From positions 16 to 64,015 of the forward strand of contig JAQUMI010000002.1 of the NCBI GenBank assembly GCA_028718225.1: DNA of 64,000 nt, read 5' to 3'. This stretch comes from Candidatus Omnitrophota bacterium. Its GTDB lineage: Bacteria; Omnitrophota; Gorgyraeia; Gygaellales; Profunditerraquicolaceae. Numbering within the stretch: the stretch's first letter is position 1; each line of letters begins with the position of its first letter. The position numbers and the translations under genes were made by a program. The notes beneath the pieces are model-generated. The model had not been told where the DNA came from. It saw only the letters and a program-made list of their open reading frames with translations, and made no database searches. Of this stretch, positions 4,504 through 47,237 are shown piece by piece.

Positions 4504-4842
4504 ATGATCGCTAAAGCTGAAGGAAAATTTTTAAGGGTTTCTCCGGGAAAGGTCCGGCTGGTTTTAGACCTTATCCGCGGGAAAGACGCATCCAGGGCCC
4601 AGGCGATACTTTTAAACATAAACAAACGGCCCAAGGAGCACCTGGTTAAGATTTTAAAATCCGCTGTTGCTAATGCCAAGGTTAAAGGGTTCAACCTTGA
4701 ACAGCTCTATGTATCAAAGGCCATTTGTAACCCGGGGCCGAGCTGGAAAAGGTTTAAAGCAGCGGCGTTCGGCAGGGCCCAGCCGATCTTAAAACGCACG
4801 GCGCATATAAAAATAGAATTAGATTTAAAATCGGGAGAATAA
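4504..4842 (+). CDS. rplV: 50S ribosomal protein L22
   Basis: 112 aa. Operon position between rpsS and rpsC. Confidence 0.92.
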   Translation: MIAKAEGKFLRVSPGKVRLVLDLIRGKDASRAQAILLNINKRPKEHLVKILKSAVANAKVKGFNLEQLYVSKAICNPGPSWKRFKAAAFGRAQPILKRTAHIKIELDLKSGE

Positions 4843-4845
4843 TAA

Positions 4846-5538
4846 ATGGGACAAAAGGTTAATCCGTTAATTTTGAGAATAGGTTTTATCCGGAACTGGC
4901 ATTCCCGCTGGTTTGCCGGACACAAGGATTACCCTAAGTTCATTTATCAGGATTATAATATCCGCAAGTTTATCAAAAAAAGATTTAAGCAGGCTGCGGT
5001 CTCTAAGATTGTTATTGAGAGATTGGCGGATAAATTAAGGATCCGTATATTCAGCGCGCGGCCCGGGATTATCATCGGCAGGCATGGCGCGGACATCGAG
5101 CGCTTAAGGGAAGATCTAAACAGTATGATCAATCAAGAGATGGCCATCGATATTGAAGAGGTTAAGAATCCGCAGCAAGATGCGCAATTGGTTGCGGAAA
5201 ATGTCGCTTTCCAGATGGAAAAGAGAGTAGCTTTTCGGCGCGCGGTAAAACGCGCTATGGAGCAATCTATAAATGCCGGAGTAAAAGGGATACGTGTCTG
5301 CTGCGCCGGCCGGCTTAACGGTGCGGAAATGTCCCGCACCGAAACTTATAAGCAGGGTAAGGTGCCTTTACAGACTTTACGCGCGGATATAGATTATGGT
5401 TTTGCCGAGAGCCTTACTACCTACGGGCTTATCGGTGTCAAGGTTTGGATTTATAAAGGCGACATACTGGAAAAGAAAGTTATATCGGAAATTGAGGCAA
5501 CTCAGGCGGAAGCCAAGGCTAAGGAGGAGATAAAATAA
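4846..5538 (+). CDS. rpsC: 30S ribosomal protein S3
   Basis: 230 aa with the MGQKVNP start and a KH-domain region. Confidence 0.96.
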
Positions 5539-17549: not shown

Positions 17550-18795
17550 AACGATAGCTGAAAAGATACTGAGTGCGCATGCCGGAAAAGAATTGAAGGC
17601 CGGCGATTTTGCCGTATGCAAAGTCGATTTTACCTTTGGCCAGGACGGAACAAGCGCGATTATCATTGACCGGATCAAAGAATTGGGAGTAAAACAGTTA
17701 AAAACTGATTTTTGCATGGTGATTGACCATAGCGCGCCTTCTCCAAGCGAAGGGGTCTCGCGAGTGCATAAAAAAATGCATAATTTTGCCAAGGAATTTA
17801 GGCAGCGGATTTTTGATATAGGCTGCGGCGTATGCCACCAGGTAATCCCGGAGTCGGGGAAGGCTTTAGCCGGCAATTTAATCCTGGGAGCAGATTCACA
17901 TACCTGCACCTATGGTGCTTTAGGTGTTTTTTCCACAGGCGTGGGCTCGACAGACCTGGCCATTGCCCTGGCCACAGGCAAAAATTGGTTCAAGGTGCCG
18001 GAAACTTTTAAGATTGTCGTAAAAGGAAAAGTTCCTAAAGGCATATTTGCTAAAGATATCATCCTGGATATTATCGGAAAAGTGGGCGCTGACGGAGCGA
18101 CTTACAAGGCAATTGAATTTTGCGGCCCGGTAATCGAGAAGATGGATATGGACGGCCGTTTGACCATGTGTAATATGGTAGTAGAGATGGGCGCCAAATG
18201 CGGATTTATGCCGCAGGATAAAACTACTTTTGCCTGGCTAAAATCCCGGAGTGTAAGGCGCAGTGTAATTAAGCCCGTAAGCGCAGATAAAGATGCCGAG
18301 TATGAAAAAATCCTGGAAATCGATATATCCAAGCTTAAAAGCCAGGTCTCTCTGCCGCATAGCGTAGACAAGGTAAGGCCGGCGGTAGAATTAAGTACGC
18401 TAAAGATTAATGAAGCATTTTTAGGTACCTGCACAAACGGAAGGTTGCAAGATTTAAAAATAGCTGCTAAAATACTTAAAGGCAGAAGAGTGGCTCCGGG
18501 CGTAAAACTTATTATCGCCCCCAGTTCGCGTTTGATTTTACTGGAAGCCATAAAGTTAAAATTGATCAATATTTTTGTCGAGGCGGGCGGGATAATCCTG
18601 GCTCCGGGATGCGGGCCTTGCGTGGGCACGCACAACGGTATACCCGCGGATGGAGAAGTAGTTATCTCTACCGCCAACAGGAATTTTAAAGGCAGGATGG
18701 GCAATCCCAGCGCCTTTATATACCTGGCTTCTCCGGCAACTGTGGCCGCCTCAGCAGTTAAGGGGTATATTACAGATCCGAAGAGCTTTATTTAA
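17542..18795 (+). CDS. Aconitase-family dehydratase large subunit (archaeal-type LeuC/HacA; substrate unassigned)
   Basis: 417 aa with GADSHTCTYGALG and the Fe-S cysteines in LGTCTNGR and PGCGPCVG. Confidence 0.85.
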   Translation: MGKTIAEKILSAHAGKELKAGDFAVCKVDFTFGQDGTSAIIIDRIKELGVKQLKTDFCMVIDHSAPSPSEGVSRVHKKMHNFAKEFRQRIFDIGCGVCHQVIPESGKALAGNLILGADSHTCTYGALGVFSTGVGSTDLAIALATGKNWFKVPETFKIVVKGKVPKGIFAKDIILDIIGKVGADGATYKAIEFCGPVIEKMDMDGRLTMCNMVVEMGAKCGFMPQDKTTFAWLKSRSVRRSVIKPVSADKDAEYEKILEIDISKLKSQVSLPHSVDKVRPAVELSTLKINEAFLGTCTNGRLQDLKIAAKILKGRRVAPGVKLIIAPSSRLILLEAIKLKLINIFVEAGGIILAPGCGPCVGTHNGIPADGEVVISTANRNFKGRMGNPSAFIYLASPATVAASAVKGYITDPKSFI

Positions 18796-28473: not shown

Positions 28474-28977
28474 TTGATCCAGGTATATACGGGTAATGGA
28501 AAAGGTAAAACCACAGCCGCGCTGGGCCTGGCCCTAAGGGCCGCTGGCGCAGGATTTAAGGTATATCTGGGCCAGTTTTTAAAAAAGGGGCATTACAGCG
28601 AAATTGCTTCTCTGAAAAAGCTCAAGAATATCAAAGTTGAGCAGTTCGGGGTAACCTATTTTACGCGCTGCGCTCTTCAGAGAAAAGACGTGGAATTGGC
28701 TAAAAAAGGATTAACCGCGGCAAAAAGAGCTATTAATAGCCGGCGCTACGCGCTGATCGTGCTGGATGAAATAAACGTTGCCTTAAGGCTGGGGCTTTTA
28801 AGCTTACCCGCAGTCCTTGCCGTGATAAAGAAAACCCCCAAGAAGATAGAGCTAGTCCTTACCGGCCGCTCGGCACACCCCGCCATCATAAAAATCGCGG
28901 ATTTAGTCAGCGAGGTAAAAGAGAGGAAACATTATTATAAGAAAAGCGTGAAGGCAAGAAAAGGCATTGAATTTTAA
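28474..28977 (+). CDS. cobO: Cob(I)alamin/cob(I)yrinic acid a,c-diamide adenosyltransferase (CobO/BtuR type)
   Basis: 167 aa with a TTG start. IQVYTGNGKGKTTAALGLALRAAGAG and ALIVLDEIN are typical. Confidence 0.88.
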   Translation: MIQVYTGNGKGKTTAALGLALRAAGAGFKVYLGQFLKKGHYSEIASLKKLKNIKVEQFGVTYFTRCALQRKDVELAKKGLTAAKRAINSRRYALIVLDEINVALRLGLLSLPAVLAVIKKTPKKIELVLTGRSAHPAIIKIADLVSEVKERKHYYKKSVKARKGIEF

Positions 28978-29015: not shown

Positions 29016-29423
29016 ATGTATAAATATGGTTTCACCCTTATAGAACTTATCATCGTAGTCATCATCGTGGCTATCCTTGCCCTAGTTGCCATCCCCAGAT
29101 ACTATGCCAATGTAGCTAAAGCACAGAAATCCCAGGTTTATAGCAACCTTAATAACATAATACAGGCAGCCAGGGCTTATTACGCAGTTAAAGGCGCTTG
29201 GCCTGCACAGGATGTTTTTCCTATTACCGTAACTATTGACGGAGATACCATATATAATGTAGCTAATCCCGACCCAAATTATACGTTTTGGCATTATTAC
29301 CATACCTCCGTCACTTGTGCATCTAGAGGTGTATATGGAACGTATGCCTATAAACAACCCGGTAATACCTGCGAGTATGGACTTTGTACGGATGCCTATA
29401 CCTGGGGAACCTGTACACCGTAG
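29016..29423 (+). CDS. Type IV pilin-like protein (prepilin with an N-terminal methylation motif), paralog 1
   Basis: 135 aa. MYKYG/FTLIELIIVVIIVAILALVAIPRY shows class III signal features (Gly-1, Phe+1, Glu+5). Four Cys in the C-terminal half; ends in TCTP. Confidence 0.85.
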   Translation: MYKYGFTLIELIIVVIIVAILALVAIPRYYANVAKAQKSQVYSNLNNIIQAARAYYAVKGAWPAQDVFPITVTIDGDTIYNVANPDPNYTFWHYYHTSVTCASRGVYGTYAYKQPGNTCEYGLCTDAYTWGTCTP

Positions 29424-29490: not shown

Positions 29491-29518
29491 TTGACAAATC
29501 TTACCGGAGTGTTAAAGT
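29491..29518 (+). promoter_or_regulatory. Putative sigma70-type promoter of the B12 riboswitch operon
   Basis: TTGACA at 29491-29496, a 16-nt spacer, then TAAAGT at 29513-29518, about 17 nt upstream of the riboswitch P1. Confidence 0.45.
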
Positions 29519-29534
29519 AAAAAAGACAACTTAA

Positions 29535-29730
29535 TTATAGGTTAGGGAAATCAGTAAGCCCCAAGGATATGTTTTGGCTTGCGTTAGCCAAAGCCATAAG
29601 CCTAAAAGGCCAAAGCTGATGCGGTCCCGCCGCTGTAACGGGCAAGTAATGCTTACAAAAAGCCACTGGTTGAAAAGACTGGGAAGGCCGTAAGAGAAAT
29701 AAGCCCTAAAGCCAGAAGACCTGCCTATAA
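29535..29730 (+). promoter_or_regulatory. Cobalamin riboswitch aptamer (long form with GCCACUG/GGGAAGGC extension)
   Basis: P1 TTATAGG (29535-41) pairs with CCTATAA (29724-30). Also present: AGGGAAATCAG..., GGTCCCGCCGCTGTAA, GCCACTGG...CTGGGAAGGC and the B12 box GCCAGAAGACCTGCC (29711-25). It lies upstream of btuFCD-cob genes. Confidence 0.85.
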
Positions 29731-29773
29731 AAAGATACGCCTCGTGGAATGGGCCAGAGCTATATTTGGGTGC

Positions 29774-29809: not shown

Positions 29810-30646
29810 ATGGCTAAGAAAATAATATTAATCCTGGTTTTTGTTTTTTTTATCCTCTCCAGCGCGCAAGCCGCGTCAAGGTACATATCCCTTGCGCCTT
29901 CAACTACCGAAATACTTTTTGCCTTAGGGCTGGGAGAGGATATTGTAGGAGTAAGTTCCTACTGTAACTATCCTCCGGAAACTAAAAATAAGGCTAAAGT
30001 CGGCGATTTCAGCCATCCGAATATAGAAAAGATAATCTCTTTAAGGCCGGATTATGTTTTTTGCACCGGTTTAGAGCAGGCACCGGTTATTGAAGAATTA
30101 AAATATTTGAAATTCAATACCTACATAGCTGATCCCGCGGATACGGAAGAATTATTCAAGACTATTACGGATATAGGAGCAATTACCCATAGGGAAAAAG
30201 AGGCGTCAGCCTTAATCAGAAAGATGAAAGACGATATTGTGCAGATCGAGGCGGATATCAAGGTTATCCCCCAGGCAAAGAGAGTGAAAGTTTTTGTAGA
30301 GATATGGCATGAACCGCTGATGACCGCCGGGAGAGGCTCAATTATCGATGAGGTCATTACCCTGGCAGGAGGTATCAATATTGCGCACGATGTCAAAAGA
30401 CCCTATTGTAATTTCAGCGCAGAGAAAGTGGTCAGGTTGGACCCGCAGGTCATTATTTTAGCTTATATGGACAGGGAGTCTCCGTTAAAATTGGTTGAAG
30501 GACGTTTTGGCTGGGCTAATATTTCCGCGGTAAAGAATAGAAGGGTCTTTAATGACATTGACCCGGAACTCTTGCTAAGGCCTACGCCCCGGATAACTGA
30601 AGGTTTGAAAAAACTTTATAAGAAATTATATCCCGTCAATGAATGA
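29810..30646 (+). CDS. btuF: Periplasmic corrinoid-binding protein of an ABC importer (BtuF-like)
   Basis: The track ORF begins at GTG 29744, inside the riboswitch platform. I prefer ATG 29810, which gives the signal peptide MAKKIILILVFVFFILSSAQA/A. Family-8 SBP fold features are present. The B12 assignment rests on the riboswitch and cob-gene context. Confidence 0.78.
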   Translation: MAKKIILILVFVFFILSSAQAASRYISLAPSTTEILFALGLGEDIVGVSSYCNYPPETKNKAKVGDFSHPNIEKIISLRPDYVFCTGLEQAPVIEELKYLKFNTYIADPADTEELFKTITDIGAITHREKEASALIRKMKDDIVQIEADIKVIPQAKRVKVFVEIWHEPLMTAGRGSIIDEVITLAGGINIAHDVKRPYCNFSAEKVVRLDPQVIILAYMDRESPLKLVEGRFGWANISAVKNRRVFNDIDPELLLRPTPRITEGLKKLYKKLYPVNE

Positions 30647-31601
30647 ACATCTAAAGAAAAAATTACTGGTTTTATTTTTACTGTTGGGTATCGCGGTAGT
30701 TTTCGGCCTGGCCCAAGGCTCAGTGCATATCCCCCTGAACAGCCTTTTGCTCAAAGATAACCAGGTAATCTTTAATATGCGTTTACTCAGGATTTTGGCG
30801 GCTATCCTGGTGGGAAGCGGCCTGGCCGCCGCGGGAATAGTCCTGCAGGCAATCTTAAGAAATCCTTTGGCCGAACCGTATTTGTTGGGTACTTCCAGCG
30901 GCGCAGGCCTGGCAGCGGTAATCGCCGTGATTCTGGGCGTTTCAAGGATTTATATGCCTCTGGCGGCATTCCTGGGTGCAGTAGCCAGTATTATTTTAGT
31001 TTACAGCCTGGCCAGTGAAAGGAAAAAAATAGCAGACAGGTCTTTAATTCTTTCCGGAGTGATTGTTTCTATAGCTTTTTCCTCAATAATAGTTTTTCTG
31101 GTTTCTTTGTTCGGCAATCAAGCCCTGCATGAAATGAATTGGTGGCTGTGGGGCTCCTTGCAGGTTTATGACTGGCAGCTTGTTCTCCTGGTTGCCCTAC
31201 CGGTTGCCTTAGGGATAGGCGTGATTTATCTTTTTGCCCAGGACCTAAACGCGATTCAACTAGGGGAAGAGGAGGCCATCCATCTGGGGATAGATACCCA
31301 GAACGTTAAAAATATTTTAATCATTGTTACCGCATTAATTACTGCCAGTCTTATCTGTATCTGCGGGATAATCGGATTTGTAGGCTTGATTGTGCCGCAT
31401 ATGATGCGCCAGGTTGTGGGTTCGAACCATAAGGCGCTCATTCCGGTCACCTGCCTGGCAGCGGCGATATTTATGGTAATTTGCGATATTGTTTCGCGTA
31501 CTCTTTTTGCTCCGGTAGAGATACCTATTGGAGTAATTACCGCGATAATCGGTGCGCCCATCTTTATTATTTTATTAAAGCGCGGACAGAAGGTTCAATG
31601 A
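30639..31601 (+). CDS. btuC: FecCD-family ABC permease (BtuC-like)
   Basis: 320 aa, multi-TM, with the C-terminal VGxITAxIGAPxFIxLL typical of FecCD/BtuC. Confidence 0.8.
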   Translation: MNEHLKKKLLVLFLLLGIAVVFGLAQGSVHIPLNSLLLKDNQVIFNMRLLRILAAILVGSGLAAAGIVLQAILRNPLAEPYLLGTSSGAGLAAVIAVILGVSRIYMPLAAFLGAVASIILVYSLASERKKIADRSLILSGVIVSIAFSSIIVFLVSLFGNQALHEMNWWLWGSLQVYDWQLVLLVALPVALGIGVIYLFAQDLNAIQLGEEEAIHLGIDTQNVKNILIIVTALITASLICICGIIGFVGLIVPHMMRQVVGSNHKALIPVTCLAAAIFMVICDIVSRTLFAPVEIPIGVITAIIGAPIFIILLKRGQKVQ

Positions 31602-32386
31602 AACCATTGCTAAGGATCGCTAATTTAAGCGCCGGCTACTCCGGCGAAGATATCATTAGGGGCGTATCTTTGGAGATTAATGCCGGCGATTTCATCGGAA
31701 TTATCGGGCCGAATGGCTCAGGCAAAACCACGCTTTTAAGGCTGTGCTCTAAGGTCCTGCGTCCCCGTAAGGGAAAAATTTATTTTGATAATAAGGATAT
31801 CTTCGCTATGGATTTAAAGGGGTTTTGCCGCAAGGTAGCCTTTGTTTCCCAGGACATCTCTACCGGTTTTTCATTCAGCGTAATGGAGCTGGCCCTAATG
31901 GGAAGGATTCCGCATTTAAAGAGGCTGCAATTTGAAACCCGAAAAGATATCGAAATCTGCGAGAAGGCGCTCGCCTTAACCGATTCTTTGGGCTTAAAGG
32001 AAAAAATAGTTAACGAACTAAGCGCAGGTGAACGCCAGCGGGCAATTATTTCCCGGGCCTTGGCCCAGGAGCCGGTACTTTTATTGCTGGATGAACCGAC
32101 AGCGCACCTGGATATCGGCCACCAGATTCAAGTGATGGATTTACTTAAAAAACTCAACCATCAGAATAACCTGACTATTATTATGATCCTGCACGATTTA
32201 AACCTTGCCAGCGCCTATTGTAACCGCATTTGCCTGCTGGATAACGGAAATATATTTAAAGAAGGCCAGGCCGAAGACGTGCTTACTTATAAAAATATAG
32301 AAGCGGTGTATAAAACAGTTGTTTTGGTGAATACTAATCCGGTTACTAAAAGGCCGAATGTAGTTTTAGTGCCGAAAGAAATATGA
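31598..32386 (+). CDS. btuD: ABC transporter ATPase (BtuD-like)
   Basis: The track ORF starts at 31481 inside btuC. I prefer ATG 31598 (MKPLLRIANLS), an ATGA overlap with the btuC stop. Walker A GPNGSGKTT, the LSAGERQR signature and LLLLDEP are present. Confidence 0.8.
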   Translation: MKPLLRIANLSAGYSGEDIIRGVSLEINAGDFIGIIGPNGSGKTTLLRLCSKVLRPRKGKIYFDNKDIFAMDLKGFCRKVAFVSQDISTGFSFSVMELALMGRIPHLKRLQFETRKDIEICEKALALTDSLGLKEKIVNELSAGERQRAIISRALAQEPVLLLLDEPTAHLDIGHQIQVMDLLKKLNHQNNLTIIMILHDLNLASAYCNRICLLDNGNIFKEGQAEDVLTYKNIEAVYKTVVLVNTNPVTKRPNVVLVPKEI

Positions 32387-32967
32387 AAGTCACGCGCCTT
32401 ACCTTAATCCGCCACGGCTTAACGCAGTGGAATAAGCTGGGCCGTTATTGCGGCCGCAAAGATGTGGCTTTAAGTAAAGAGGGAAGAGCGCAAGCGCAAT
32501 GTTTAGCTAAGCAGCTAAAGGCTGCCAGGTTTGACAAGGTTTATTCCAGCGATAGGAAACGCAGCCTCCAGACCGCCCGCATAGTATTTAAAAAAGCTAA
32601 AATTATCCGGGCATCTTCGTTAAGAGAGCTTGATTTCGGGGTTCTGGAAGGATTACGCCATAATGAAATCATGGAGAAATATCCGTCTGTTTATAGACGG
32701 TGGCTTAATGATCCGTACCGGGATTGTATCCCCGGGGCTGAACCTATGCGCGGGTTTAAACGGAGGGTTAAGCTGGGCCTGGAAAAGATTATCCGCTTAA
32801 ATGCGGGAAAAAATTTGGCAATTGTTTGCCATGGAGGAGTAATCGGCATATTCATCAGCAGTATATTAAAAAAAAAGAATTTCTGGCGCTATATTCCGAA
32901 AACGGCAAGCTTGACCATAATTGAATGTACGGGAGGCATCTTTAAGATCAAGGAGAGGAATGGGTAA
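32383..32967 (+). CDS. cobC: Histidine-phosphatase family protein, alpha-ribazole phosphatase (CobC-like)
   Basis: 194 aa with the RHG motif (LIRHGLTQWN) and CHGGVI. Sits in the cob operon. Confidence 0.75.
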   Translation: MKVTRLTLIRHGLTQWNKLGRYCGRKDVALSKEGRAQAQCLAKQLKAARFDKVYSSDRKRSLQTARIVFKKAKIIRASSLRELDFGVLEGLRHNEIMEKYPSVYRRWLNDPYRDCIPGAEPMRGFKRRVKLGLEKIIRLNAGKNLAIVCHGGVIGIFISSILKKKNFWRYIPKTASLTIIECTGGIFKIKERNG

Positions 32968-33478
32968 GATAACTTTAGTCCTGGGGGGAGTAAGGAGCGG
33001 AAAGAGCGCTTATGCTTTAAGCCTGGCAGGTAAAAAGAAAAAGGTAGCTTTTATCGCTACCGGTGAGGGACTAGACAAGGAGATGCGCGAACGTATCCTG
33101 AAGCATCAAAAAACCAGGCCGAAGGATTGGGAAACTTTCGAGGAGCCAAGGGATTTGACGGCTTTAATAGCCAGGATCGGAGACGATTATGATTGTATTA
33201 TCGTTGATTGCCTGACTCTTTTAATTTCCAACCTTATTTTGGCTAAGGATAAGGAAAAAGCTATTCGGGGAAAATGCGCAGCCTGGCTATTGCAGCTAGA
33301 AAAGAAAAAAGCAAAGATAATCCTGGTGGCTAACGAAGTGGGTTTAGGGCTAGTCCCGCTAACTAAATTGGGGAGGGATTTCCGCGATATCGCCGGAAGA
33401 ATAAACCAGTTAGCGGCGCAGGAAGCCCAGGAGGTTTACTTGCTTGCCGCAGGAATACCGTTAAAGATAAAGGGGTGA
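32960..33478 (+). CDS. cobU: Adenosylcobinamide kinase / adenosylcobinamide-phosphate guanylyltransferase
   Basis: I prefer ATG 32960 (MGKITLVLGGVRSGKSAYA), with the GGxRSGKS P-loop. It overlaps the cobC stop by 8 nt. Confidence 0.85.
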   Translation: MGKITLVLGGVRSGKSAYALSLAGKKKKVAFIATGEGLDKEMRERILKHQKTRPKDWETFEEPRDLTALIARIGDDYDCIIVDCLTLLISNLILAKDKEKAIRGKCAAWLLQLEKKKAKIILVANEVGLGLVPLTKLGRDFRDIAGRINQLAAQEAQEVYLLAAGIPLKIKG

Positions 33479-33484
33479 ATTTAA

Positions 33485-34546
33485 ATGGAGAGGATAAGCA
33501 AAATAGCTAAGAGTATCTGCGCAATAGATGGAGCTATGCTGGAGAGGGCCCAAAACAGGCTGGATAATTTAACCAAGCCTTTAGGAAGTCTGGGCCGGCT
33601 CGAGGAATTAGCCAAACAAATCTGCGGGATTAGCGCAAGTGAAAACCCCCTATTGAAAAATAAGGTTATTTTTACGCTGGCGGCGGACCATGGCGTAACC
33701 GAAGAAGGCGTCAGCCCCTACCCGCAAGAGGTGACTGCTCAAATGGTCTATAATTTTCTTTCCGGCGGTGCGGGGATAAATATTTTAGCCGGGCATGTCG
33801 GGGCCAGGGTAGTAGTAGCGGACGTCGGAGTCAGTATCGACCTTAAGCCTGATTCAAGGCTGGTAGACAGAAAAATAAATTACGGGACAAAAAATATGGC
33901 TCGCGGGGCGGCAATGACTAAGGATGAAGCGCTAAAGTCAATTTGCGCCGGAATAGAAATATTTGAGAACGAATATAAAAAAGGCATTGATATCGCCGGA
34001 ACGGGAGAGATGGGAATAGGCAATACTACCGCAGCCAGCGCCATAACCGCCTGTTTTACTAAAAGGCCTGTCGAGGAGATAACCGGCAGGGGTGCCGGCC
34101 TGGACGATAAAGGCCTGAATAATAAAATAACTGTAATCAAAAAATCTTTGTCCGCGAATAATCCCGATCCGCTCGAGGCGATTGATGTATTGGCCAAAGT
34201 CGGCGGTTTCGAGATCGGCGGGCTCGCCGGAATAATTTTAGCGGCGGCGGCAAATAAAGTCCCCGTAGTCATTGACGGTTTTATTTCCGGGGCAGCCGCA
34301 TTAATCGCTTATCATATTGAGCCAAAAGTCAAGGATTACATGATTGCCAGCCATTGCTCGGTAGAAGGCGGGCATAAAATAATTTTAGAATTTTTGGGGT
34401 TAAAACCGCTCTTGGACCTGAATTTAAGGCTCGGAGAAGGGACCGGCGCTGCTTTAGGCATAGGGCTGGCTGATGCTGCGCTAAAAATTTTAACTCAGAT
34501 GGCTACTTTTAAAAGCGCGAATGTTTCGGAGAAGAAAAATGAATAG
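33485..34546 (+). CDS. cobT: Nicotinate-nucleotide--dimethylbenzimidazole phosphoribosyltransferase
   Basis: 353 aa with GEMGIGNTT and LGEGTGAA. Confidence 0.9.
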   Translation: MERISKIAKSICAIDGAMLERAQNRLDNLTKPLGSLGRLEELAKQICGISASENPLLKNKVIFTLAADHGVTEEGVSPYPQEVTAQMVYNFLSGGAGINILAGHVGARVVVADVGVSIDLKPDSRLVDRKINYGTKNMARGAAMTKDEALKSICAGIEIFENEYKKGIDIAGTGEMGIGNTTAASAITACFTKRPVEEITGRGAGLDDKGLNNKITVIKKSLSANNPDPLEAIDVLAKVGGFEIGGLAGIILAAAANKVPVVIDGFISGAAALIAYHIEPKVKDYMIASHCSVEGGHKIILEFLGLKPLLDLNLRLGEGTGAALGIGLADAALKILTQMATFKSANVSEKKNE

Positions 34547-35270
34547 TTTTTTCTTAGCCCTCCAGTTCCTGACAGTTATCCCGTTAAAAATAAAAGGGGT
34601 AACTGAGGAAAAACTGGCCAGGGCAACGCTATATTTTCCTTTAGTCGGCTTACTCATCGGCCTGGTCCTGGCGCAGATAAATTTGGGTTTATTTATCCTG
34701 AATTTTCCCTCTCTTGCAATAAGCATAATTTTAATCGTCTTTTTGGTCGGCCTGACTGGCGGCCTGCACCTGGACGGCCTTTCTGACAGCGCAGATGCTT
34801 TTTTAAGCGGCCGGTCCAAAGAAGAAATGCTTAATATTATGCGCGACCCGCACACCGGAGTAATGGGCGTTTTAAGCATTATCTGCGCTATTCTTTTAAA
34901 AATTGGCTTACTGTATTCTCTGCCTACTCCGGCAAGGACGAGCGCGTTACTGCTGATGTGTGTTTTAAGCCGCTGGTCAGCGGTACTGGCGATGTTTGCG
35001 TTTGCCTATGCCAGGCAAGAGGGAAAAGCCGGGGTTTTTATCCGGGGGATAACCCCGAAGATTTTCCTCGTTTCCTTAATCTCGGCTTTTATATTTGCGT
35101 TGGTTATCTGGCAGCTTAAGGGATTAATCGCGTTAGCTATCGTAAGCGGCTGCGCTTATCTGTCCGGCAGCTTTACCAACAGAAGAATAGGCGGGATAAC
35201 CGGAGACACGCTGGGAGCAACAATAGAACTAACAGAAATAGCTGTTCTGTTAATTTTTTGTATTTTATAA
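34539..35270 (+). CDS. cobS: Adenosylcobinamide-GDP ribazoletransferase (cobalamin synthase)
   Basis: I prefer ATG 34539 (MNSFFLALQFLTVIP). Multi-TM with the HLDGLSD and GGITGD motifs. Confidence 0.88.
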   Translation: MNSFFLALQFLTVIPLKIKGVTEEKLARATLYFPLVGLLIGLVLAQINLGLFILNFPSLAISIILIVFLVGLTGGLHLDGLSDSADAFLSGRSKEEMLNIMRDPHTGVMGVLSIICAILLKIGLLYSLPTPARTSALLLMCVLSRWSAVLAMFAFAYARQEGKAGVFIRGITPKIFLVSLISAFIFALVIWQLKGLIALAIVSGCAYLSGSFTNRRIGGITGDTLGATIELTEIAVLLIFCIL

Positions 35271-35281
35271 AAAGGAGCTGT

Positions 35282-35956
35282 ATGGACGCGCTAAAGGCAA
35301 TATCATCGTGGAGCGGAGGAAAAGACAGTTGTTTGGCTTGTTATAAGGCAATGCAGCAGGGTTATGATGTAAAATTGCTCTTGAATTTTGTTTCGCGGGA
35401 ATCCAAGCGCGGGTGTTTCCACGGAATTGAAAGCAGACTGCTTAAGTTTCAGGCGGATTTAGTCGGAGTGCCCCTGGTACAGCGGGAAGTCAGCCCGGAT
35501 ATGCAGAAATACGAAGCAGAATTCAAAACTGCGGTTACCGAGCTAAGGGGCAGCGATATCGGCTCAATGGTCTTTGGCGATATCTACCTCCTGGAGCACG
35601 AAAGCTGGATTGAGCGGGTCTGCGGGGATTTAAAAATTAATCCTATAGAGCCGCTTTGGAATAATACTCCGGAAAATATTATTGCCGAGTTTTTAAAAGC
35701 GGGGTTTAAAGCAATTATTGTCAGCTGCAAGGCAGATATAATGGGCAAGGAATTTCTCGGCTGTTATATTGATCAAGGTTTGGTTGAGGAATTGAGAAAA
35801 AGAGGCATCTGCCCCTGCGGGGAGAAAGGAGAATTCCATACTTTAGTGGTTGATGGGCCCATATTCAGCCGGCCGATTAAAATTTTAAAGGCTGAACCAA
35901 TAATCAAGGAAAGTTTTTGGAAACACTGGTTCTTGGATATTAAAGAATACGCTTAA
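35282..35956 (+). CDS. PP-loop ATP pyrophosphatase of the Dph6 / MJ0570 (DUF71) family; function unknown in bacteria
   Basis: I prefer ATG 35282, preceded by AAGGAG. It carries the SWSGGKDS PP-loop and GEKGEFHTLVVDGPIF, typical of the diphthine-ammonia-ligase-like family. It is the last gene of the riboswitch-controlled cob operon. Confidence 0.75.
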   Translation: MDALKAISSWSGGKDSCLACYKAMQQGYDVKLLLNFVSRESKRGCFHGIESRLLKFQADLVGVPLVQREVSPDMQKYEAEFKTAVTELRGSDIGSMVFGDIYLLEHESWIERVCGDLKINPIEPLWNNTPENIIAEFLKAGFKAIIVSCKADIMGKEFLGCYIDQGLVEELRKRGICPCGEKGEFHTLVVDGPIFSRPIKILKAEPIIKESFWKHWFLDIKEYA

Positions 35957-35970
35957 AACTTCTTTAAGGA

Positions 35971-36108
35971 TACAAAACCGGATAGGTGAAGGAAGTCCTG
36001 GTGAGAACCCAGGCGCTGTCGCGCAACGGTAATATTGGCAATAAGCTAATTAGCCCGGTCGATCGCTTATTATCAGGTAAGTACTCTCGCCAGAAGGGAA
36101 AGGATTGT
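35971..36108 (+). promoter_or_regulatory. Second cobalamin riboswitch-like element (short architecture)
   Basis: GGTGAAGGAAGTCCTGGTGAGAACCCAGGCGCTGTCGCGCAACGGTAA matches the conserved Cbl core. A B12-box-like CGCCAGAAGG lies at 36089-36098. There is no GCCACUG/GGGAAGGC module and no terminator. The 3' end abuts the btuB ATG. Confidence 0.6.
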
Positions 36109-37956
36109 ATGAAAAATACTACTAGGAGATTAATTATTGCAGGGTTATTGCTTTGTGCCCTGCCGGGTATTGCCAAGGCAGAAGATGTTGATTTGGATAA
36201 AATAGTCGTTACTCCCTCCAGGATAGAAGAATCCTCCGCAGATGTCGGCCGCACAGTTGACGTAATTACCTCCAGGGATATGGAAAGAAGCGGGGCGCAA
36301 AATTTAGCCGATGCCCTTACTGAACTTACTTCCGTTGAGATAAGTAATTATGGCGGGCCGGGCACAGACAAAAACATAAGAATGCGCGGTTCAACTGCCA
36401 GCCAGGTATTGGTTTTAATGGACGGTCGGCCAATAAATAACCCGCGTGACGGCCAGGCAGACTTGTCTGCTGTCCCCTTAGATAATATATCCCGGGTTGA
36501 AGTTATGCATGGCCCGGGCTCAAGCCTTTACGGAAGTTCAGCAATGGGAGGTGTGGTCAATATCATTACCCGGCAACCGCCTAAAGAAGGGCAGAAAACC
36601 GAGCTTTACTCTAGTTTCGGCACTGCCCGGACTTACATAGAACGCCTCTCACATGGAGCAAGAATATCCAATTTCGGATATCTCATCAGCGGAAAATACC
36701 AGAGTTCAGCGGGTTTTCGTTCCAATTCTGCTCTTAACGCCTCAGATTGTAACCTTAAGCTGGATTATGATTTCAATAGCCAGAATAATATAAAACTAAA
36801 TTCAGGATTCTATAAAAGCAAACTAGGCACACCGGGTCCGATAACTGCGCCTGACCCGGATGATAAACAAAATACCTTGAAGCGTTTTTTTGATTTTAAC
36901 TGGAATTTTAAACCAGATGAGCAAACAGGTATGTCAGCTAGGGTTTATCAGAATTACGACCGTTTGGAATTCCTAGAGAATTCTTCCGACGGATGGAATT
37001 CCGACAATCAAAAAGATATACATACCACTACCGTTAGAGGTATAGATTTGCAGTTTGATAAACAGTTGTTAGATGTTTATAGGATAGTATGCGGATTAAA
37101 TTATGTGAAAAATATGAATGATAGCACCACTAGCGCAAAACATGAATATAATGTGACTTCAGGTTATTTAGAAAACCGCCTAGATTTATTTGATAATAAA
37201 CTAAACATTAATCTTAGTGCGCGCCTTGATGATTATTCTAATTTTGATATGGAAATTAACCCCAGCCTAGACTTTCTGTATAAACTTAACGAGGTTATAA
37301 AATTTCATGGTTTAATTAGTCGCTCTTACCGAGTTCCTACTTTTAATGATCTATACTGGCCTAATGCAGATGGCATGATAGGTAATCCTAATCTGAAGCC
37401 TGAAAAAGGAGTAACCGGAGAGTTGGGCGTTGAAACAAAAGTCAATAAATATTTTACATCAGGGTTAACTTATTTTTGTAGCGATTATAAACAGCTTATA
37501 CAGTGGTCTTACAACCCAACTACTATGATGACGCAGCCAGAAAATATTAGTTCTGCTGTAATTAACGGTATAGAATTTGAAAATAAAATATTTATTTCAG
37601 ATAAGATTGACCTTAATCTTAATTATACTTATCTGATGGCCAGGGACGAAGATACTCATAAGTATCTTGTTTACCAACCGAAAAATAAGCTAGATGCTTG
37701 CTTGAAATATCATGACTATAATGGATTGACAGTCGAATTAAAAGGCCAATTTACAGGGATAAGGTTTGCCGACGCTAATAATAACGACAAGGTCAAAAGT
37801 TTTTTTGTCTTAGGGCTTAGCGTATCAAAAAAAATCAAACCCGGTTTAACCTGCTTCGCCTACATTGATAACCTTTTAAACCGTAAATATCAGGTTATGC
37901 AGGGTTATCCGATGCCGGGTTTTTCTTTTACCGGCGGCTTGAAGGCTGAATTTTGA
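36109..37956 (+). CDS. btuB: TonB-dependent outer-membrane receptor (BtuB-like)
   Basis: The track ORF starts at GTG 35986 inside the riboswitch. I prefer ATG 36109, which gives the signal peptide MKNTTRRLIIAGLLLCALPGIAKA. Also present: the TonB box DKIVVTPSR, a plug domain and the terminal aromatic residue ...LKAEF. Confidence 0.82.
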   Translation: MKNTTRRLIIAGLLLCALPGIAKAEDVDLDKIVVTPSRIEESSADVGRTVDVITSRDMERSGAQNLADALTELTSVEISNYGGPGTDKNIRMRGSTASQVLVLMDGRPINNPRDGQADLSAVPLDNISRVEVMHGPGSSLYGSSAMGGVVNIITRQPPKEGQKTELYSSFGTARTYIERLSHGARISNFGYLISGKYQSSAGFRSNSALNASDCNLKLDYDFNSQNNIKLNSGFYKSKLGTPGPITAPDPDDKQNTLKRFFDFNWNFKPDEQTGMSARVYQNYDRLEFLENSSDGWNSDNQKDIHTTTVRGIDLQFDKQLLDVYRIVCGLNYVKNMNDSTTSAKHEYNVTSGYLENRLDLFDNKLNINLSARLDDYSNFDMEINPSLDFLYKLNEVIKFHGLISRSYRVPTFNDLYWPNADGMIGNPNLKPEKGVTGELGVETKVNKYFTSGLTYFCSDYKQLIQWSYNPTTMMTQPENISSAVINGIEFENKIFISDKIDLNLNYTYLMARDEDTHKYLVYQPKNKLDACLKYHDYNGLTVELKGQFTGIRFADANNNDKVKSFFVLGLSVSKKIKPGLTCFAYIDNLLNRKYQVMQGYPMPGFSFTGGLKAEF

Positions 37957-38066: not shown

Positions 38067-38753
38067 ATGTTCACTAATCGCACACTTAAACTGGCTTTTT
38101 TGGTTTCCCTGGCATTGCACACAACTGTAATGTTTCAGAATCCGGGGTATATATTTTTCCCTTCTACGGGAAAAAGCCAGAAAATAGAAGTAAATTATAT
38201 TAAACCGCTAAAAGCAATAAAAACGGAAACCAAAAAAACCAGCCTTAGCCGGAATGAACCGTTCCTGAAATTGCCGGCAAAGATTAGTATGGATAAAAGG
38301 ACTCCCCCGCCGTTTGTAAACAGGGAGGAGGCCTCTAAAGCCGCTTTGCAGGTAATGCCTAAAGAGCCTATCTTTGACAAGCCCGCTGGGCTGCTTAAAC
38401 CGGATACCATCGCGATCAAAAAAAAGATTACTCTTCCGGCGGTAGCTTTGGAAAAAATCACCAATCCTTCCTATATAAGCTACTATCAGGTTGTACGCGA
38501 AAAGATCCGCCGGTCAGCCTACCAGAACTATAACCGCAATGAAACAGGGGAAGTCTACATTACTTTTATCATCTCGGATGCGGGATACCTCAAAGGCGTA
38601 CGTTTAGTAGAAGAGAAGTCGCGGGCAACGCCTTACCTGAAGAATATTGCTTTAGCCAGCGTAAAAAACGCTTCTCCTTTTCCGCGTTTCCCCAAAGAAT
38701 TAGACTACTTTCAACTCTCCTTTAACGTAGTCATCTCTTTTGAAGTAGAATAA
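38067..38753 (+). CDS. tonB: TonB-like energy transducer
   Basis: 228 aa. N-terminal TM with an SxxxH motif (SLALH), a Pro/Lys-rich linker, and a C-terminal domain (GEVYITFIISDAGYLKGVRLV...ASPFPRFP) resembling TonB_C. Confidence 0.6.
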   Translation: MFTNRTLKLAFLVSLALHTTVMFQNPGYIFFPSTGKSQKIEVNYIKPLKAIKTETKKTSLSRNEPFLKLPAKISMDKRTPPPFVNREEASKAALQVMPKEPIFDKPAGLLKPDTIAIKKKITLPAVALEKITNPSYISYYQVVREKIRRSAYQNYNRNETGEVYITFIISDAGYLKGVRLVEEKSRATPYLKNIALASVKNASPFPRFPKELDYFQLSFNVVISFEVE

Positions 38754-44643: not shown

Positions 44644-44716
44644 GCCGGCGTAGCTCAGTTGGTAGAGCGTCTGTTTTGTAAACAGATGGTCGGGGGTTCG
44701 ATTCCTCTCGCCGGCT
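44644..44716 (+). tRNA. tRNA-Thr (anticodon UGU)
   Basis: Hand-folded cloverleaf with acceptor GCCGGCG/CGCCGGC, anticodon arm TCTGT-TTTGTAA-ACAGA and T-loop TTCGATT. 73 nt, no encoded CCA. Starts 1 nt after the nnrD stop. Confidence 0.9.
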
Positions 44717-44733
44717 TTTAAAGGTAAATGAAC

Positions 44734-44816
44734 GGGTAGGTACCCAAGTGGCCAAAGGGGGCAGACTGTAAATCTGCTGCACTTGTGCTTCAGAGGTTCG
44801 AATCCTCTCCTGCCCA
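44734..44816 (+). tRNA. tRNA-Tyr (anticodon GUA), long variable arm
   Basis: Acceptor GGGTAGG/CCTGCCC (one G-U pair), anticodon arm GCAGA-CTGTAAA-TCTGC, T-loop TTCGAAT. 83 nt. Confidence 0.88.
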
Positions 44817-44905
44817 ATTAAATTTTCCGGCAAGGAAAATTAAATAACACTGAGTGAGCATTGCGAGGCGACAAGCCGAGCAGCGAAGGAAGTGCCTAGA
44901 GCGAT

Positions 44906-44976
44906 GCGGGAGTAGTTCAGTGGTAGAACAATAGCCTTCCAAGCTATATATGGGGGTTCGATTCCCCTCTCCCGCT
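44906..44976 (+). tRNA. tRNA-Gly (anticodon UCC)
   Basis: Acceptor GCGGGAG/CTCCCGC, anticodon arm ATAGC-CTTCCAA-GCTAT, T-loop TTCGATT. 71 nt. Confidence 0.9.
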
Positions 44977-47162: not shown

Positions 47163-47237
47163 CGGGGCGTGGCTCAGTTTGGCTAGAGCGCTTGAATGGG
47201 GTTCAAGAGGTCACAGGTTCAAGTCCTGTCGCCCCGA
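47163..47237 (+). tRNA. tRNA-Pro (anticodon GGG)
   Basis: Acceptor CGGGGCG/CGCCCCG, anticodon arm CTTGA-ATGGGGT-TCAAG, T-loop TTCAAGT. 75 nt, lying 7 nt after the gpsA stop. Confidence 0.88.

Follow-up and report, generated by a model that had tools for sequence, protein, structure and literature searches.

A DUF71-B12 PP-loop ATP pyrophosphatase encoded in a corrinoid uptake and salvage operon of Candidatus Omnitrophota

Organisation of the locus

The window analysed in this study is the whole 64-kb stretch of DNA (64,000 nucleotides) from contig JAQUMI010000002.1 of a Candidatus Omnitrophota bacterium. It carries a string of genes for corrinoid uptake and nucleotide-loop assembly (btuF, btuC, btuD, cobC, cobU, cobT and cobS), followed by an open reading frame (ORF) for a PP-loop protein of the DUF71 family and then by btuB. 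The DUF71 gene occupies positions 35282-35956 of the plus strand, from an ATG at 35282 to a TAA at 35954-35956, and encodes 224 amino acids (aa). The product is a member of DUF71-B12, the bacterial and secondary-archaeal branch of the Dph6/MJ0570 PP-loop ATP pyrophosphatases, and it very probably has a role in corrinoid salvage.

The eight genes from btuF to the DUF71 gene are tightly packed, with overlaps of 4-26 nt or gaps of no more than 11 nt. The cobS stop codon (35268-35270) is separated from the ATG of the DUF71 gene by 11 nt, rather than the 12 nt given in a preliminary description of this DNA. The Shine-Dalgarno sequence reported there, AAGGAG, was read directly at 35272-35277 and ends 4 nt 5' of the ATG. 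The DUF71 gene is translationally coupled to cobS. More than 100 proteins with 78-94% identity to the window protein, all of 224 aa plus or minus a few residues, are present in Omnitrophota metagenome assemblies, and this number of close homologues of near-constant length indicates that the gene is under purifying selection. A Candidatus Omnitrophica/Omnitrophota bacterial metagenome-assembled genome (MAG) is on record as encoding exactly the window protein. The gene is real, and its product is a family member carrying the DUF71-B12 signature.

A cobalamin riboswitch heads the operon, as had been described; its position, however, was given as 29535, and the RF00174 match spans 29522-29742. The match scored above the gathering cut-off and lies upstream of the DUF71 gene on the same strand, with neither a terminator nor an opposite-strand gene in between. 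The best sigma-70-like promoter match of the region is found directly 5' of the aptamer; it fits the consensus and no more, and such sites were overall not more numerous than in shuffled sequences. From its sequence context, the DUF71 gene is predicted to be expressed within a B12-riboswitch-controlled operon for corrinoid uptake and nucleotide-loop assembly. Its placement inside the unit btuFCD-cobC-cobU-cobT-cobS was correctly described, and the linkage recurs across phyla.

A second cobalamin riboswitch had been placed in front of btuB. The element found there (35964-36109) gave its best match to the AdoCbl family RF01482 with E=5e-6 in a 501-nt search, but its score was below gathering, and a scan of the whole window with Rfam at gathering cut-offs did not report it. 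The element is conserved in four Omnitrophota relatives (L001, L006, L008 and L009; 61-93% protein identity), with an almost invariant core, one variable insert, and compensatory changes in 14 of the 32 predicted pairs. Because of this conservation with compensatory pairs it was accepted, despite the sub-gathering score, as probably a short B12-class aptamer.

It is not established that the operon ends with the DUF71 gene, as had been claimed. No terminator-like site was found on the plus strand between 35900 and 36110, and in relatives with 78% identity (L003-L005) there is a 4-nt overlap between the DUF71 stop codon and the start of btuB, with no intergenic element. The DUF71 gene may equally be an internal member of a unit running on into btuB.

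Assignment of the window protein to DUF71-B12

The DUF71/COG2102 family was split into two groups by de Crécy-Lagard, Forouhar, Brochier-Armanet, Tong and Hunt (Biol Direct 2012, 7:32; PMC3541065). The first group is Dph6 proper, from archaea and eukaryotes. The second, DUF71-B12, comprises all bacterial members and second copies in some archaea, PF0295 being an example, and was placed in a SEED subsystem. Clustering with btuFCD was reported for this group, the gene adjoining B12 transporter genes in 75 of 102 members and cbiB in 18 of 102, and the Dph6 motif EGGE/DxE188 was replaced by ENGEF/YH188. The preliminary description regarded the window gene as a candidate for an undescribed function; its association with B12 genes is not undescribed, DUF71-B12 having been defined on exactly such clustering. 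The B12 link of bacterial Dph6-like enzymes was therefore already published in 2012, and no new association is involved. A 2016 review entered DUF71-B12 as 'function unknown, B12 salvage'.

The window protein was matched over its full length by the Pfam domain PF01902 (Diphthami_syn_2; E=7.1e-55, 186 bits, 217 of 219 profile positions). Its PP-loop, SWSGGKDS with the core SGGKDS, lies at residues 9-16, and the block GEKGEFHTLVVDGPIF at residues 180-195. The ORF call and the domain match agree with the earlier account of a 224-aa protein with this PP-loop and a block of the Dph6/DUF71 type. The motif GEKGEFH fits the DUF71-B12 signature, and in an alignment to P. furiosus PF0828 residue H186 stands opposite E188 and Y77 opposite E78. 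Clustering with B12 transport and salvage genes was found in the window (btuFCD-cobC-cobU-cobT-cobS-DUF71-btuB) and also in relatives. Thus the domain, the PP-loop, ExGE[F/Y]H, the clustering with btuFCD and nucleotide-loop genes and the bacterial host are all shared with the subgroup. The differences, none of them essential, are the third residue of the motif, K in place of the consensus N, and the phylum of the host, Omnitrophota, which was not included in the 2012 set.

Most database records of the window protein and its close relatives bear the name 'diphthine--ammonia ligase', and the best NCBIfam match of the window protein was TIGR03679 (Dph6_archaeal). A genuine diphthine-ammonia ligase (EC 6.3.1.14) was nevertheless rejected, and its chance is practically nil. 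The TIGR03679 score was 146.3 bits against an equivalog cut-off of 197.3, the catalytic-site E188 that is strictly conserved in EGGE/DxE is H186 here, and the host is a member of the Omnitrophota, bacteria having neither diphthamide nor dph genes (PMC3541065). The statement in the preliminary description that the diphthine reaction has no substrate in bacteria is in accordance with these results. With Dph6 (yeast YLR143W; archaeal PF0828 and PH1257; PDB 3rjz, 3rk1 and 2d13) the window protein has in common the fold (TM 0.82-0.87, 27-28% identity), the ATP-binding PP-loop and the GxGE core motif. It differs from Dph6 in having H for E188 and Y for E78, in the predicted EF-2-contact residues, in a gene context of B12 rather than translation, and in a host lacking the diphthamide pathway.

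When 1.84 billion cluster representatives were searched exhaustively with HMMER, 4084 matches were obtained at E<=1e-3. Among the top 150 50%-cluster representatives, ExGE[FY]H was present in 119 of the 120 sequences covering the motif. Diverse relatives with 32-53% identity, 71 in all, were aligned; the residues conserved at 90% or more were the PP-loop SGGKD, H47, Q57, Y77, G99-D100, W109, P124-L125-W126, G160, G180, E181, G183, E184, H186, T187, G192-P193 and F195, with H at motif position 186 in 70 of the 71. The AlphaFold2 model derived from the aligned sequences is confident (pLDDT 96.2, pTM 0.93), and the only solved structures close to it were those of the archaeal Dph6 proteins PH1257 and PF0828 (2d13 and 3rk1, both ATP-bound). 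No DUF71-B12 member was found among solved structures. The ATP-pyrophosphatase active site of the window protein is intact. The Dph6 residues E78 and E188, both replaced in the window protein, lie near the modelled diphthine site; their loss would fit the exchange of the cationic trimethylammonium substrate for another carboxylate, and the chemistry may have stayed the same. Thiol chemistry through the cysteine of 'PCGE' was also considered and rejected. C179 was present in 50 and C114 in 55 of the 71 relatives, and neither is therefore an essential catalytic residue.

Gene neighbourhood of DUF71-B12 in other genomes

The pattern GExGE[YF]HT[FLV]V was searched in one genome per GTDB species and gave at least 599 confirmed stretches. 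The census was performed on the best 80 of these loci, which are from species representatives, mostly MAGs, and comprise 58 bacterial and 22 archaeal loci. The bacteria were Omnitrophota, Atribacterota, Planctomycetota, Lentisphaerota, Chloroflexota/Dehalococcoidia, Nitrospirota, Desulfobacterota, Clostridia and Bacteroidota, and the archaea were Bathyarchaeia, ANME and Methanosarcinales. Single-sequence tblastn with the window proteins missed archaeal and divergent neighbours and was replaced by ORF calling and clustering, in which the cluster representatives were compared with Pfam and NCBIfam.

Of the 58 bacterial loci, 44 had one or more genes for B12 transport or salvage on the same strand within 5 kb, and 26 had at least three different ones. 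From general knowledge of genome organisation, we estimate that only a few percent of random genes would have a B12 gene at a distance of up to 5 kb. The share of B12 genes among nearby genes was 32% within 1 kb and fell to 3-4% at 8-10 kb. The linkage was retained across at least eight phyla even though the gene order was shuffled.

The neighbours detected within 5 kb were BtuD (28 loci), BtuF (21), BtuC (19), CobS (18), BtuB (16), CobT (14), CobU (13), CobC, CobD-like and asparagine (Asn)-synthetase-like proteins (12 each), CobO (11), CbiB (10), CbiP (6), archaeal CobT (5), and CobY and CobZ-like proteins (4 each). Almost all of these neighbours shared the strand of the DUF71 gene. Transport genes (BtuF and BtuB) were the tightest and commonest partners, and the DUF71 gene was also found in strings without nucleotide-loop genes (L042, L032, L073, L075 and L080). 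These data bear on the alternative offered in the preliminary description, that the enzyme activates a lower-ligand or linker precursor. Such a role would accord with the location of the DUF71 gene near cobT and cobS in the window, and by archaeal cobT in several archaeal loci. However, the gene most often adjoins btuF, btuB or the Asn-synthetase-like gene, and because it occurs in the above strings, which lack cobT, cobS and cobU, this alternative is weakened and now appears very improbable.

Riboswitches were searched with Rfam in 40 of the bacterial loci (593 kb), 18 bacterial and all 22 archaeal loci being left out. A total of 24 Cobalamin matches were obtained in 20 of the 40 loci. In 18 of them, RF00174 was located upstream on the same strand, heading a co-directional string that includes the DUF71 gene; in several of the riboswitch-negative loci the contig ends just upstream. 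Together with the 44 of 58 bacterial loci above, this answers in the affirmative the earlier question of whether DUF71 recurs near cob and btu genes. In L039 and L071 a Cobalamin aptamer follows directly after the DUF71 gene and precedes btuB, as in the window. The word 'riboswitch' does not occur in PMC3541065, where riboswitch control of DUF71-B12 was not analysed. Unrelated riboswitches of the c-di-GMP-I class were detected in L075 (9507-9594) and L011, and a glycine riboswitch in L011, the two elements of L011 being at 4796-4882 and 17757-17903.

The Asn-synthetase-like PP-loop gene directly adjoins DUF71-B12 in nine of the 12 loci in which it was found within 5 kb. Its product, of about 310 aa, is equivalent to asparagine synthetase B reduced to the PP-loop synthetase half (PF00733, E=4e-43), the glutaminase domain being absent; an SGG[LIV]D[ST] motif is present, and the scores are below all NCBIfam cut-offs. 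The gene is often translationally coupled to DUF71-B12 in strings headed by a cobalamin riboswitch, for example BtuB-AsnSl-DUF71-BtuF, where AsnSl is the Asn-synthetase-like protein. It is absent from the window. Of such a partner, PMC3541065 mentions nothing but fusions of AsnB with DUF71, in a few archaea. In addition, cobyric acid synthase (CobQ/CbiP) was present in seven salvage or transport strings without other de novo corrin-ring genes (L058, L033, L043, L046, L054, L075 and L077), which suggests that these salvagers amidate imported, incompletely amidated corrinoids. From the Asn-synthetase-like neighbour and CbiP we infer a recurrent amidation theme around DUF71-B12, and this has shaped the choice of substrate proposed below.

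Other partners were also observed. A radical SAM/SPASM enzyme (TIGR04163 'rSAM_cobopep', CbpB; up to 687 bits) recurs in B12 salvage strings and is next to DUF71-B12 or the Asn-synthetase-like gene in L034 (1461-2855), L013 (6339-7697), L046, L054, L075 and L079. In the Dehalococcoidales loci L029 (3363-7624) and L021 (6521-9868), DUF71-B12 is beside genes for a DUF4430 protein, ECF T, a fused double ECF ATPase and ECF S, and L029 also harbours CobO. This set looks like an ECF-type corrinoid importer replacing BtuFCD.

The features of the window and the coordinates of selected census genes are presented in Table 1. Neither cbiZ nor cbiB was found near the operon within the window. The possible TonB-like gene is kept 3' of btuB in relatives. 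Between cobO and the first riboswitch there is an ORF of 135 aa (29016-29423) whose N-terminus has a methylation motif like that of type IV pilins (PF07963). The window also has four tRNA genes (Rfam RF00005), three of them clustered at 44644-44976 and one at 47163-47237.

Table 1. Features of the B12 operon region in the window, and Asn-synthetase-like and CbiP genes of census loci
Feature	Sequence	Position	Strand	Evidence or remark
cobO/btuR, ATP:corrinoid adenosyltransferase	Window	28474..28977	+	PF02572, E=1.2e-59; upstream of and outside the riboswitch-headed unit
Sigma-70-like promoter match, best of region, directly 5' of riboswitch 1	Window	29491..29518	+	10/12 hexamer, TG
Cobalamin riboswitch aptamer, operon head	Window	29522..29742	+	RF00174, 86 bits vs gathering 31.5, E=8.3e-20
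btuF-like periplasmic binding protein (Peripla_BP_2)	Window	29813..30646	+	PF01497, E=3e-32
btuC-like permease	Window	30639..31601	+	PF01032 FecCD, E=4e-88
btuD-like ABC ATPase (ABC_tran)	Window	31598..32386	+	PF00005, E=1.7e-28
cobC-like alpha-ribazole phosphatase, histidine phosphatase family (His_Phos_1)	Window	32383..32967	+	PF00300, E=1.9e-52
cobU, cobinamide kinase / cobinamide-phosphate guanylyltransferase	Window	32960..33478	+	PF02283, E=4.6e-58
cobT, lower-ligand phosphoribosyltransferase (DBI_PRT)	Window	33485..34546	+	PF02277, E=1.1e-135
cobS, cobalamin-5'-phosphate synthase	Window	34521..35270	+	PF02654, E=1.6e-54
AAGGAG Shine-Dalgarno sequence	Window	35272..35277	+	Read from sequence
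DUF71-B12 PP-loop ATP pyrophosphatase, Dph6 paralogue, 224 aa	Window	35282..35956	+	PF01902; GEKGEFH; AlphaFold2 model
AdoCbl-riboswitch-like element before btuB	Window	35964..36109	+	RF01482, 40.3 bits, below gathering 50
btuB-like TonB-dependent outer-membrane receptor	Window	36109..37956	+	PF07715 Plug, PF00593
Possible TonB-like protein, weak	Window	38067..38753	+	PF03544 TonB_C, E=8e-4, below cut-off
Asn-synthetase-like gene directly 5' of DUF71-B12	L060	9055-9990		
Asn-synthetase-like gene directly 5' of DUF71-B12	L073	9075-10004		
Asn-synthetase-like gene directly 5' of DUF71-B12	L080	7997-8929		
Asn-synthetase-like gene directly 5' of DUF71-B12	L067	2892-3875		
Asn-synthetase-like gene directly 5' of DUF71-B12	L035	8845-9801		
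Asn-synthetase-like gene directly 5' of DUF71-B12	L061	7219-8196		
Asn-synthetase-like gene directly 5' of DUF71-B12	L027	9013-9978		
Asn-synthetase-like gene directly 5' of DUF71-B12	L037	6832-7896		
CbiP in a salvage string	L058	1256-2785		NF001989, 629 bits

Possible reactions of DUF71-B12

To our knowledge, the N-type PP-loop enzymes characterised so far all activate a carboxyl or carbonyl oxygen by adenylation, after which a C-N or C-S bond is made. The window protein would likewise bind ATP and adenylate a carboxylate oxygen with release of pyrophosphate, the acceptor being a side chain of an imported corrinoid that has a free carboxylate. Attack on the acyl-adenylate by a nitrogen nucleophile, in the simplest case ammonia, would restore or complete an amide, so that deamidated or incompletely amidated corrinoids would become usable directly after import. 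An imported corrinoid is the likely substrate, since DUF71 genes occur in transport-only strings and have transport genes as their main partners. Among the reactions considered, this adenylation and amidation of a corrinoid carboxylate was ranked first, although it can be put forward only tentatively. The preliminary description had already suggested an ammonia-dependent re-amidation of this kind, which agrees with the chemistry of the family and with a gene context centred on transport. As a variant it is plausible, and it differs from the published hypothesis of a substitute for CbiZ. ATP-dependent amidation of corrin carboxylates is also the type of reaction performed by the amidotransferases CbiP/CobQ and CbiA/CobB, but these belong to another superfamily (a dethiobiotin-synthetase-like ATPase plus a glutaminase domain), use glutamine and form acyl-phosphate intermediates. 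A more elaborate proposal, in which DUF71-B12 is an ATP- and ammonia-dependent corrinoid repair amidoligase that in many lineages would act jointly with the adjacent Asn-synthetase-like PP-loop protein, is more doubtful than the amidation itself.

Ranked next is the role proposed in PMC3541065, equivalent to that of CbiZ in the salvage of pseudo-B12, the reaction being left open. DUF71-B12 would then fill the bacterial role of CbiZ by converting adenosyl-pseudo-B12 to cobyric acid, or would provide another route of entry for pseudo-B12, and the product would be rebuilt through CbiB, CobU/CobY, CobS and CobT. DUF71-B12 is reported to be strictly anticorrelated with CbiZ in bacteria, and nearly all genomes with CbiB to have either CbiZ or DUF71-B12 (PMC3541065). 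In the census, CbiB directly adjoins DUF71 in L046 and L054, two examples of its presence within 5 kb in 10 loci, and no recurrent CbiZ-like cluster was seen among the annotated neighbours. The adenosylcobinamide/pseudo-B12 amidohydrolase CbiZ also has a similar genomic niche, by btu and cbiB genes. However, the two proteins are unrelated in fold and chemistry, CbiZ being an ATP-independent hydrolase and the window protein an ATP pyrophosphatase. PP-loop enzymes spend ATP on building C-N or C-S bonds and not on hydrolysing amides, and the ATP-binding residues are fully kept in DUF71-B12. Moreover, the window operon and many others have CobU without cbiB or cobD in the string, and DUF71 is also found in strings with transport genes alone. 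A substitute for CbiZ is considered unlikely.

A third reaction would retain the native chemistry of the family, in which a carboxylate is converted to an amide. Here the f-propionate of cobyric acid would be activated as an acyl-adenylate and coupled to aminopropanol or its phosphate, and the enzyme, a soluble protein, would assist or replace membrane-bound CbiB. The product, cobinamide, could be phosphorylated by the kinase activity of CobU, which serves cobinamide salvage and is encoded in the same operon, and CbiB and CobD co-occur with DUF71 in 10-12 loci. Such a ligase would be redundant where CbiB adjoins DUF71, though, and the window string has no cobD to supply aminopropanol. This possibility is quite improbable, and was ranked equally with that of a substrate other than a corrinoid.

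Several observations weigh against a dedicated role in corrinoid metabolism, or against the amidation proposed here. The authors of PMC3541065 took the change of E188 to H as the mark of a changed reaction and favoured a CbiZ-like role. No later activity, structure or mutant of DUF71-B12 was found in the full-text literature, in which few subscription-journal papers were covered, and the subgroup goes unmentioned in the 2020 paper on remodelling by CbiR. Only 5 of the 22 archaeal loci had B12 neighbours, the annotation being less sensitive there and many contigs short. Domain fusions were examined as a clue to function and discarded, the partners in longer homologues having no relation to B12. 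Finally, homologues with the H signature were found without B12 context in L011, L012, L070, L085, L045 and L057. The H motif alone is no guarantee of a B12 role, and given these homologues the subgroup may not be specific to corrinoids.

The two Atribacterota homologues (L011:9968-10678 and L012:9941-10675) are 53-54% identical to the window protein and have no B12 genes nearby. Those of Chitinophagaceae (L070:9965-10633 and L085:4430-5080) are 3' of an RNase H-like gene, and the Dehalococcoidia paralogues (L045 and L057) follow aldehyde-oxidoreductase-like genes. The fusions were P0126 (2455 aa), P0207 (523 aa), P0230 (386 aa), P0267 (308 aa) and P0125 (458 aa), with DUF4116 repeats (in a giant protein that also has kinase, HAD and DIT1 domains), a GNAT acetyltransferase, a Cys-rich CWC domain or a tandem DUF71 as partners.

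The unrelated contexts of these homologues, and the presence of several paralogues in some genomes, would be explained if the substrate were another small molecule or a protein, and if the place in the operon reflected gene-order drift or an indirect link. The linkage, which persists in eight or more phyla although the gene order is shuffled, and the usual translational coupling and riboswitch control argue against this explanation, which seems as improbable as a helper of CbiB.

Significance

Compared with the 2012 study, the new elements are the riboswitch control, the confirmation of the linkage mostly in MAGs, and the recurrent Asn-synthetase-like partner; the census does not reveal a new kind of system. 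The riboswitch control, the second PP-loop partner and the co-location with CbiP provide handles for experiment. As a name for the bacterial protein, 'diphthine--ammonia ligase' is almost certainly wrong. DUF71-B12 is widespread, with at least 599 motif stretches in species-representative genomes, and the identity of its reaction would fill a gap in the models of corrinoid salvage and cross-feeding that are used to predict the B12 dependence of communities. If the proposal of a repair amidoligase is true, the B12 cofactor family would have its first dedicated enzyme of damage repair or completion, and the placement of DUF71-B12 beside transporters in salvagers would be explained.

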